From the IMG/VR virus record IMGVR_UViG_2875713109_000001: a DNA stretch of 64,000 bases, one strand, 5' to 3'. Source of the DNA: a virus. Taxonomy: Duplodnaviria > Heunggongvirae > Uroviricota > Caudoviricetes. The notes beneath the pieces were generated by a model that saw nothing but the letters and a program-made list of their open reading frames with translations, was not told the origin of the DNA and made no database searches. The position numbers and the translations under genes are program-made. Shown here piece by piece: positions 32,946-34,163 of this stretch (position 1 is the first letter of the stretch; the number at the start of each line of letters is the position of its first letter).

Positions 32946-34163
32946 TTATCCTTTCCGTTTACGGGCTTCGTTAATTTGTGTCTCAAGAATGCTTCGCGCC
33001 TGCGCGGTGGCAGCGGCCTTGTCCATTCCCTGACTCATGAAAAACTTTATGAGGTTGTTCGCCTGCGTTTGCAGGGCTTTTTTGAGAGCGTCGGCTTCAG
33101 CGCGAGCCTGGGCTTCCCTCACCCGCGAGGCTTTTAGTTCGGCATTCTTCCTGTTTGCCGTGGTGCGAGCTTTTTTTAATAACAGGCGAACGTTGTCCGT
33201 GGCGCTATCTTTTGCGCGTAGTTTTTTGCCTAATGCATCCTGAGATTTCAGATACAGCTCATACTCACGCGCAGCTTTAGCCTGATCCGTCGTTGTTGTC
33301 CGGTTGCGCGCGAGCGATTTAGCCAGTTCGCCTTTGAAATAGGTTGTTGTCTTCCGCTTGTCATCGCCGAAGGCTACCTGTTCAGCTGCTTTTTCCAGGG
33401 CAATAATGATGGCCTTGTGCCATGTGGGAGACTGAAAACGCGTCATAGCGTGCAAAACATGTTTGCAAGCCACACCAGTCAGATCAGGGTTGCGGATTTT
33501 GGGGAATGCATACTCTTTTGGCGGCGCGACAGCATAGTTACCAGCCGTGGCCATATAACGATACCAGTATTGATGGCGTCCACAATCACAGTCGAAAGAT
33601 ACCCGGCCCTTGCAGAGATCGGCAGCGATTCGGGCTTTTTTCGCACCGTCTTCAGCAATTTCCTCAACGGCTTTATCCCATTCCTCAAATCGAATTCTGA
33701 CACGGTGATGCTGGTGGACCGACTCATCCGAGGCATTAACAGATATCAATGCAAGGTTGTGTTTTAGCCCGAGGAATGTCGCGGCTTTGATCCCTGTGCC
33801 ATCAGAAACCTTGTTGTTAGCGCGTTTTATATCAATGCTGGTGGACTGCGCCACCAGCTGAGCATAGGTAATGCCGGGTACCGTGCTCTTGAATTTAGTT
33901 TTATGAGCCTGCCTTGAGGTGTTGAAACTGCGTATATCTTCGGGCGTAAAGTAGGTGCCATCTTTCTTTTTCCCAAGGCTGAGGAATGCCTCAAGTTCGC
34001 GGTTACGCATCCCCATAATCCTTGGGGTGAGTGTACGTCGCGCGTTTCGCCGATTCTGACGCTGCTGTTTACGGATAAGATCGAAGACCTTGTTAAAGTC
34101 TTTTGCACTTAATCCATCAGTCTGATAGCGACCAAGGTTGTCGCGAGCATATTCAGTTGGCAT
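32946..34163 (-). CDS. hypothetical protein with SWIM-type zinc-finger-like motif and basic coiled-coil tail
   Basis: CDCGRHQYWYRY...CKHVLH pattern (CxCx..CxH); Lys/Arg/Ala-rich C-terminus. Confidence 0.4.
   Translation of the reverse strand: MPTEYARDNLGRYQTDGLSAKDFNKVFDLIRKQQRQNRRNARRTLTPRIMGMRNRELEAFLSLGKKKDGTYFTPEDIRSFNTSRQAHKTKFKSTVPGITYAQLVAQSTSIDIKRANNKVSDGTGIKAATFLGLKHNLALISVNASDESVHQHHRVRIRFEEWDKAVEEIAEDGAKKARIAADLCKGRVSFDCDCGRHQYWYRYMATAGNYAVAPPKEYAFPKIRNPDLTGVACKHVLHAMTRFQSPTWHKAIIIALEKAAEQVAFGDDKRKTTTYFKGELAKSLARNRTTTTDQAKAAREYELYLKSQDALGKKLRAKDSATDNVRLLLKKARTTANRKNAELKASRVREAQARAEADALKKALQTQANNLIKFFMSQGMDKAAATAQARSILETQINEARKRKG

Follow-up and report, generated by a model that had tools for sequence, protein, structure and literature searches.

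Bacteriophage P1 is the phage routinely used for transduction in Escherichia coli and also a model phage, and its virion has now been built almost completely. Gene 25 of this phage, reportedly defined genetically by Walker and Walker in 1983, has been a "function unknown" gene for 40 years and is still without fold, location or mechanism. Here we analyzed this gene and its product (gp25) in a viral DNA of 64,000 nucleotides (IMG/VR record IMGVR_UViG_2875713109_000001, the whole of which is referred to as "the window"). The gene is the open reading frame (ORF) at 32946–34163 on the minus strand, which starts with ATG and encodes 405 amino acids. Its DNA is 99.3% identical to that of P1 over 1218 bases, other punaviruses are 98–99.5% identical to it, and the source of the window is a P1-type phage or phage-plasmid. 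PHROG 1722 matches residues 1–405 of gp25 (E = 7e-227). The counterpart in the P1 reference record NC_005856 is P1_gp083, annotated as "tail stability", and protein length, operon, promoter and operator agree with those of P1.

Gene 25 is the second gene of an operon in the order 26-25-7-24-6-5. The genes and control elements are as follows.

34623–34639, minus strand: operator O26 (formerly Op82) of the C1 repressor, ATTGCACTAATAATTTT, upstream of gene 26 and identical to the operator annotated in P1 (NC_005856).
34580–34598, minus strand: late promoter LP26, with the −22 box AAATGACTA at 34590–34598 and the −10 box TAGAAT at 34580–34585, matching the P1 annotation.
34173–34550, minus strand: gene 26, 125 amino acids, baseplate "plug" similar to T4 gp53, first gene of the operon (ORF, PHROG 1269).
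32946–34163 including the stop codon, minus strand: gene 25, 405 amino acids, "tail stability" (DNA identity, P1 annotation, PHROG 1722).
32214–32942, minus strand: gene 7, 242 amino acids, neck stopper with an acidic N-terminal extension (PDB 9ums chain B, PMC12810830).
31442–32245, minus strand: gene 24, 267 amino acids, tail terminator (PMC10304247, PMC12810830).
29799–31440, minus strand: genes 6 (baseplate hub) and 5 (spike), the last in the operon (PMC9024508, PMC12810830).

Nine bases separate the stop codon of gene 26 from the ATG of gene 25, three bases lie between the stop codon of gene 25 and gene 7, and the pairs 7/24 and 6/5 overlap. A preliminary description of this DNA, made from the letters alone, had placed the protein inside a baseplate cluster. 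This holds for genes 26, 6 and 5, and gp26 itself has been built in PDB 9ay5/9vzk and described in PMC12810830 and bioRxiv 10.1101/2025.07.21.665459; genes 7 and 24, however, belong to the neck and the tail terminator. The late promoter and C1 operator which the same description had put upstream of the gene are indeed present and essentially identical to LP26 and O26 of P1, but they belong to gene 26 and not to gene 25. Both sit in the intergenic region between 26 and pmgL, and the 9-base spacer between 26 and 25 contains neither promoter nor operator. LP26 differs from its P1 counterpart by one G-to-A change at window position 34586, just upstream of the −10 box, and both boxes and the operator are unchanged.

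The most distinctive feature of gp25 is a Cys3His motif, C192-D-C194 ... C233-K-H235, or CxC-x38-CxH, which consists of three parts.

33582–33590, minus strand: first half-site, C192-D-C194, where strand 187–192 ends in the model.
33468–33581, minus strand: residues 195–232, conserved insert between the half-sites, with a GRHQYWYRY helix and then the loop E217..FPK.RNP.L.G230.
33459–33467, minus strand: second half-site, C233-K-H235, where helix 234–242 begins in the model.

A single occurrence of such a motif is weak evidence, because the loose CxC..CxH pattern has one other match among the 141 stop-free stretches of at least 100 amino acids in the window. That second match, in a 356-amino-acid stop-free stretch at about 46.4 kb on the plus strand, is taken as chance. 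For gp25, we searched 1.84 billion representative proteins and obtained a family of 625 clusters at 50% identity (E ≤ 0.001), 191 of them at E ≤ 1e-30. Every one of the 241 relatives with a full core keeps C192, C194, C233 and H235, down to about 23% identity, with a spacing of 36–44 residues (mode 38), which rules out a chance motif. Nor do these four positions vary in two alignments, one of 20 and one of 32 sequences. The latter, whose members are 22–44% identical to gp25, has only twelve invariant columns, and four of these are the Cys/His ligands; the others are G97, V155, G208, E217, P221, N225, G230 and K234. The pattern recognized in the preliminary description is thus borne out at the level of the whole family, and judging from these alignments it is a conserved, probably metal-binding, SWIM-like site, for which zinc would be the expected metal.

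The SWIM zinc finger was reportedly described by Makarova, Aravind and Koonin in 2002 as CxCxnCxH, with a canonical spacer of about 6–25 residues. An upstream strand of the gp25 family, of the form x-V-x-[AG]-S...[YH]-x-V-x-[IV], resembles the lead-in usual for SWIM. gp25 itself has no match in Pfam, even at E ≤ 10, and none in NCBIfam. Among 32 relatives, PF04434 (SWIM) was the most recurrent Pfam family, found in 9 (the next family in 2), with sub-threshold scores and a best E of 0.015. In the native relatives PF04434 aligns to the CKH half only, at profile positions 23–36 (G-x-x-C-K-H-[VI]-L). When the loop was excised in silico, SWIM became the only or top match, covering both half-sites (positions 11–36) with 10.5–14.8 bits; the gathering cutoff of PF04434 is 19.6 bits and was reached by none of the SWIM scores here. 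Distant core-only relatives read C-T-C-P-D ... G-S-A-C-K-H-V-L, which is nearer to the textbook motif.

gp25 shares with SWIM the ligand signature and its order as well as the fit of the G-x-x-C-K-H-[VI]-L half to the profile. The predicted secondary structure would also fit the SWIM layout, in which CxC closes a strand and CxH opens a helix: according to DSSP assignments of two AlphaFold models, C192 closes strand 187–192 and C233/H235 open helix 234–242. It differs in the spacer of 36–44 residues with invariant positions of its own, in two helices inserted before the CxC strand, and in its location in a phage late morphogenesis operon rather than in helicases, transposases or kinases. We therefore describe the Cys3His site as SWIM-like but divergent, bearing an insert of about 38 residues that is peculiar to this family, and not as a member of Pfam SWIM, since the scores stay below the cutoff despite the fitting motif and predicted secondary-structure layout. 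The gp25 family as a whole is a phage morphogenesis family that carries a SWIM-like finger with a conserved insert and has no curated Pfam or NCBIfam model. Our literature search on SWIM in phage virions or tails returned nothing relevant.

Around this site the protein can be divided into three regions.

33879–34163, minus strand: residues 1–95, basic N-terminal helical region, with helix 20–40 and conserved R38, LTP (45–47) and LGKKxDGTxFT (63–73).
33378–33875, minus strand: residues 97–262, conserved alpha/beta core domain with the putative zinc site (core model with a mean predicted local distance difference test score, pLDDT, of 92 and a predicted template-modelling score, pTM, of 0.88).
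32949–33377, minus strand: residues 263–405, Lys/Arg/Ala-rich helical tail, net charge +17, variable in sequence (composition, AlphaFold).

The basic C-terminal region reported earlier is real: residues 301–405 contain 13% Lys, 9.5% Arg and 19% Ala, with a net charge of +13, and the whole protein carries +34. The description of this region as a long basic coiled coil fits in its charge and in its long helices, which AlphaFold predicts at 294–316, 320–377 and 382–404. The coiled coil itself fits less well: the helices are 23% hydrophobic, and the heptad contrast over residues 294–377 has p ~0.02 against shuffles, with single segments not significant. The P1 annotation of gene 25 mentions myosin-rod similarity. 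The end of the tail has a small conserved helical motif, which is SHOCT-like in some relatives. Positive charge is a property of the entire family, with isoelectric points (pI) of 9.6–10.8 and net charges of +14 to +45 (median +30), divided between core (median +13) and tail (median +13). The downstream neighbour of gp25-family genes, on the other hand, is always acidic. In gp7 the acidic N-terminal extension has a net charge of −23 in its first 70 amino acids (window 32733–32942, minus strand), and the whole protein has −34 and a pI of 4.1; this extension is present in Enterobacterales relatives and absent from the shorter gp7-like proteins elsewhere.

We then compared predicted structures with solved ones. 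The full-length AlphaFold model has a mean pLDDT of 78, and the confident core model covers residues 92–265 and was predicted with a deeper alignment of 47 sequences. Foldseek searches with both models against 350,542 PDB chains gave nothing at E ≤ 0.001 (best E about 0.3, template-modelling score at most 0.22), and the top matches, kinase N-lobes, are noise; a known fold was therefore rejected. No solved SWIM structure was recovered in these searches, nor was any relative among the baseplate proteins of P1 and T4, so the clear homology to a wedge protein without a zinc site, which the preliminary description had named as its refutation, was not found. Sequence searches of the PDB with gp25 and with a 34-sequence core profile were empty or gave only chance G-alpha matches. 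Against BFVD, only uncharacterised proteins of about 180 amino acids from large phages matched. A PD-(D/E)xK-type nuclease was also considered and has no fold support, and the conserved E/K residues are located in the loop.

Next, we examined the gene neighbourhood in 57 loci from isolated phages, viral contigs and bacterial contigs (one genome per species), in which ORFs were called by a longest-ORF heuristic and clustered. Hosts include Desulfovibrio, Bilophila, Shewanella, Vibrio, Pseudomonas, Paraburkholderia, Acinetobacter, Moraxella and a metagenome-assembled genome of Phycisphaeraceae. The gp25 family occurs in phage-plasmids and prophages of many Proteobacteria and Desulfobacterota, and shorter relatives are present in large myophages of Firmicutes. 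A scan of viral contigs with the alignment led by P1 returned only P1 copies, and another with the distant member P0170 found nothing. A gp26-like gene directly precedes the gp25 relative in 43 of the 57 loci. The relative is directly followed by a gp7-like gene in 20 loci and, in 21 others, by a small acidic ORF (phrog_4597, 165–190 amino acids). Two layouts recur, namely pacA-pacB-mat-26-25-7-24-6-5-(23-22-21) and TerL-x-26-25-smallORF-(x)-capsid-x-sheath-21. From these layouts and the neighbour counts, the trio of 26, 25 and the gene at the stopper position can be regarded as a conserved unit. We do not call the small ORF (family c10) a stopper, because hhalign of the gp7 family against it gave a probability of 3%; pairwise BLAST of gp7 against these ORFs gave no match either. 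In several relatives (e.g. L090, L094, L097 and L138 in the series L090–L138, from Desulfovibrio, Shewanella, Syntrophorhabdaceae and others) late genes that are scattered in P1 (window 56170–57561 and 49314–50798), including mat and in some cases ref, are contiguous, so the late-gene layout of P1 looks rearranged.

Shorter relatives that comprise hardly more than the core are located within neck modules of unrelated large myophages. Bacillus phage HSE3 has, one after the other, an Ad2 adaptor, a gp21-like gene, the SWIM-like gene, x, a Neck1/tail-completion gene, a sheath stabiliser, x and the sheath. Listeria phage LIS04 has a core-only relative between an annotated neck protein and the sheath, in the same order as HSE3. 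In a gut phage with T4-type portal and capsid, the order is gp13-like neck gene, x, SWIM-like gene, four ORFs, sheath and tube. In this gut phage, represented by the contigs L141 and L142 (Logan ERR5683758_5952 and ERR5671698_9817), TGA evidently stands for an amino acid (code 4 or 25); for example, the 17 genes called in L142 1940–19506 contain 23 in-frame TGA codons, and TAA or TAG occurs in them as the terminal codon only. A domain of the product of P1 gene 21 (window 10479–11294, minus strand; phrog_1053) recurs in HSE3 and LIS04, where it is encoded by the gene that directly precedes the SWIM-like gene, with 63% identity over 68 amino acids in HSE3 (loci L004 7723–8652 and L144 5919–6944). 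In the accessible part of the published work, gp21 is not among the P1 virion proteins listed, and gp21 and gp25 may be two "invisible" morphogenesis proteins that work together. A 161-amino-acid relative of Maribacter phage Molly_5 (Molly5_127, L145 6779–7264), which has the motif region only, lies among primase, ligase and small early-type genes.

Published data on P1 particles complement these results. Proteomics of virions purified in caesium chloride (CsCl) detected gp25 with 2 peptides and 8.4% coverage; in the same work HHpred gave nothing above 50%, and the authors left the role open (PMC9024508). In the near-complete virion determined by cryo-electron microscopy (PMC12810830), Prt is the portal, PmgC the adaptor, gp7 the stopper and gp24 the terminator, and gp26 is one of ten baseplate proteins; gp25 is not among the proteins named there, nor does it appear in a separate study of the P1 baseplate. 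Our sequence search of the PDB likewise found the neighbours gp7 (9ums) and gp26 (9ay5, 9vzk) and no gp25 in deposited P1 structures. Together with the lack of a fold match to any PDB chain, this agrees with the earlier remark that the protein would be unusual for a baseplate component. The P1 annotation gives "tail stability" to genes 7, 24 and 25, and two of these three are now the stopper and the terminator, the rings that meet at the head-tail joint.

With about even confidence, we suggest that gp25 helps to finish the tail and head or to join them at the neck and is not a stoichiometric building block. This reading rests on the annotated mutant class, the coupling to the stopper gene and the location in neck modules of three other lineages, as well as on the mere traces of gp25 in virions and its lack in symmetric maps. 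In P1, as in HSE3, LIS04 and L141/L142, the gene lies within the connector gene module (25-7-24 in P1), and comparison of gp25 with connector families in PHROG, Pfam and the PDB gave no match by sequence or fold. Gene 25 is transcribed late from LP26, which drives the whole operon, depends on Lpa and is overlapped by the C1 operator O26. In the proposed mechanism, the core fold would be pinned by the Cys3His zinc site, whose halves are split by the conserved loop of about 38 residues. The zinc-stabilised core and the invariant loop (E217, P221, K222, N225, P226) might then dock on a conserved neck partner, for example the stopper or the terminator, and the basic tail might contact an acidic partner or DNA. 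Finally, gp25 would be released, or kept in only a few non-symmetric copies.

Several observations weigh against this suggestion. The "tail stability" label comes from the GenBank annotation and papers that cite it. The most conserved upstream neighbour, gp26, is a baseplate and not a neck protein, and in SP15-like phages the upstream neighbour is gp21-like (phrog_1053); the P1 genome annotation reportedly records gene 21 as belonging to the tail tube or baseplate. No homology to gp7 is detectable in the small acidic ORF which takes its place in half of the loci, and since the Molly relative is located outside any structural module, a neck function does not follow from the motif region alone. 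A pI of about 10 throughout the family would be no less compatible with a DNA-binding protein than with a protein chaperone, and zinc binding, the partner and the assembly step are inferred. In a genome-wide CRISPR interference screen gene 25 was non-essential, with an efficiency of plating of 0.11; the knock-down was probably incomplete, because the structural gene 26 was scored as non-essential too, with 0.12 (PMC10695390). Genes 25 and 26 are both defined by conditional-lethal mutants, and knock-down at the head of the operon was probably weak.

The charge data favour another explanation, which takes up the suggestion of the preliminary description that the protein may bind nucleic acid or be an injected internal protein and in which gp25 is a DNA-binding protein of the capsid interior or neck lumen, a few copies of which are packaged with or on the genome end and leave with the DNA, possibly holding the DNA ends. 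The core is basic as well as the tail, zinc knuckles of this type are linked to DNA or protein binding, and gp25 is missing from symmetrised maps, in which a lumen or internal protein present in a few copies is not seen; moreover, gp25 leaves a trace in CsCl-purified virions (PMC9024508) and the P1 connector channel is unusually wide, about 40 Å. We nevertheless consider this explanation unlikely, if worth serious attention, as the annotated mutant class is a morphogenetic and not a post-injection defect, Pfam, NCBIfam and Foldseek recognized no DNA-binding fold, the two peptides are possibly carry-over, and there is no link to the Dar internal-protein genes. Somewhat less probable to us is an assembly factor for tail or baseplate whose partner is gp26, the tape measure or gp21; it would serve as chaperone or initiator in hub or tube assembly and have no role at the neck. 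In its favour are the gp26-like gene directly upstream in 43 of 57 loci, the gp21 domain (phrog_1053) upstream in SP15-like phages and the position just downstream of the tape-measure/lysin gene in Xanthomonas phage Rb1, and the absence of gp21 from the P1 virion proteins listed in the accessible published text points the same way. However, the P1 label is "tail stability", which implies that tails are made, and not a baseplate or tail-length function; gp26 is assembled in the baseplate without any modelled partner; and the stopper-type downstream link and the neck-module position in three lineages would be left unexplained. A wider idea is that the gp25 family might be previously unrecognised few-copy zinc-knuckle "genome-end" proteins. 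These would be placed without symmetry in the lumen of portal and neck, on the DNA end that is packaged last, would be required for sealing and joining by stopper and terminator, and would leave with the DNA. We regard it as speculative and doubtful. A protein that was never identified reportedly holds the ends of abortively transduced DNA together (Sandri and Berger 1980), and under this idea gp25 could be that protein; our literature search on an end-binding protein in P1 abortive transduction returned nothing relevant.

Two further identities suggested by existing labels are very improbable. A stoichiometric component of the baseplate would agree with the operon shared with gp26, gp6 and gp5 and with the "tail protein" label of PHROG 1722 and RefSeq, but it is already largely refuted, for two independent reconstructions of the baseplate at about 3.2 Å explain the density without gp25, no solved baseplate protein resembles it in fold, and its mass-spectrometry signal is only a trace. 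Equally remote is a regulator like MvaT or H-NS, whether nucleoid-associated or transcriptional: the homologue in Xanthomonas phage Rb1 is annotated in this way (PQ569993, PMC13478112) and the tail is basic, helical and Lys/Ala-rich, yet Pfam and NCBIfam gave no MvaT/H-NS match among the 32 + 10 + 3 members scanned, the gene is expressed from a late operon together with virion genes, and its synteny with structural genes is conserved. The Rb1 homologue (L002 8893–9972, PQ569993) carries the annotation "transcriptional regulator MvaT/P16". The paper on that phage, there called GYRb1, describes a predicted MvaT/P16 regulator, ORF50, as the region most similar to Acinetobacter phage ABMM1, and this ORF50 presumably corresponds to the gp25 homologue. 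The Lys/Ala-rich tail has probably given rise to a mistaken label. Both database labels of gp25, "baseplate/tail protein" and "MvaT regulator", are thus unsupported. A scaffolding protein, suggested by the position before the capsid gene in ABMM1 and Rb1, was rejected, as the P1 capsid protein has its own cleaved N-terminal domain and this position is not conserved.

For a gene of such long standing, the analysis offers several handles, namely four candidate metal ligands, an invariant loop that resembles a docking surface, and the trio of 26, 25 and the stopper gene, which names possible partners. If the reading in which gp25 acts on DNA ends were true, it would also be relevant to transduction, namely to how the transduced DNA is kept, delivered and protected by P1.

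Finally, we compared gp25 with known systems. Lambda gpFI, T4 gp2/gp4 and SPP1 gp7/Mu F are helpers encoded beside portal or neck genes and are absent or rare in the particle. To our knowledge, none of them carries a SWIM-type site. Like these small accessory proteins, which are needed for productive head-tail joining or DNA handling, gp25 may be such a helper, by functional analogy only: there is no detectable homology, and when phage records were searched by BLAST with distant relatives of gp25, both full-length and core-only, the matches listed were confined to P1-type phages and a few further large myophages and included no record of T4, lambda or SPP1. MuF/SPP1 gp7 is understood here as in PMC5512222. 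T4 gp25, a baseplate wedge protein, shares only its number with P1 gp25 and is unrelated; its P1 counterpart is PmgA. Closer at hand are P1 gp7, gp24 and PmgC. Genes 7, 24 and 25 have the annotated mutant class in common and are adjacent in P1 and many relatives, and core-only relatives of gp25 lie in neck modules; gp25 differs from these proteins in having no sequence or fold similarity to them, in being strongly basic where they are acidic, and in not being seen in the connector map. With gp25 of P1 itself (P1_gp083, PHROG 1722) the gene described here is the same, with nothing of substance different, and relative to the published P1 work, as far as its accessible text extends, the anatomy of the putative zinc site, the extent of the family and the synteny of gp25 are new.

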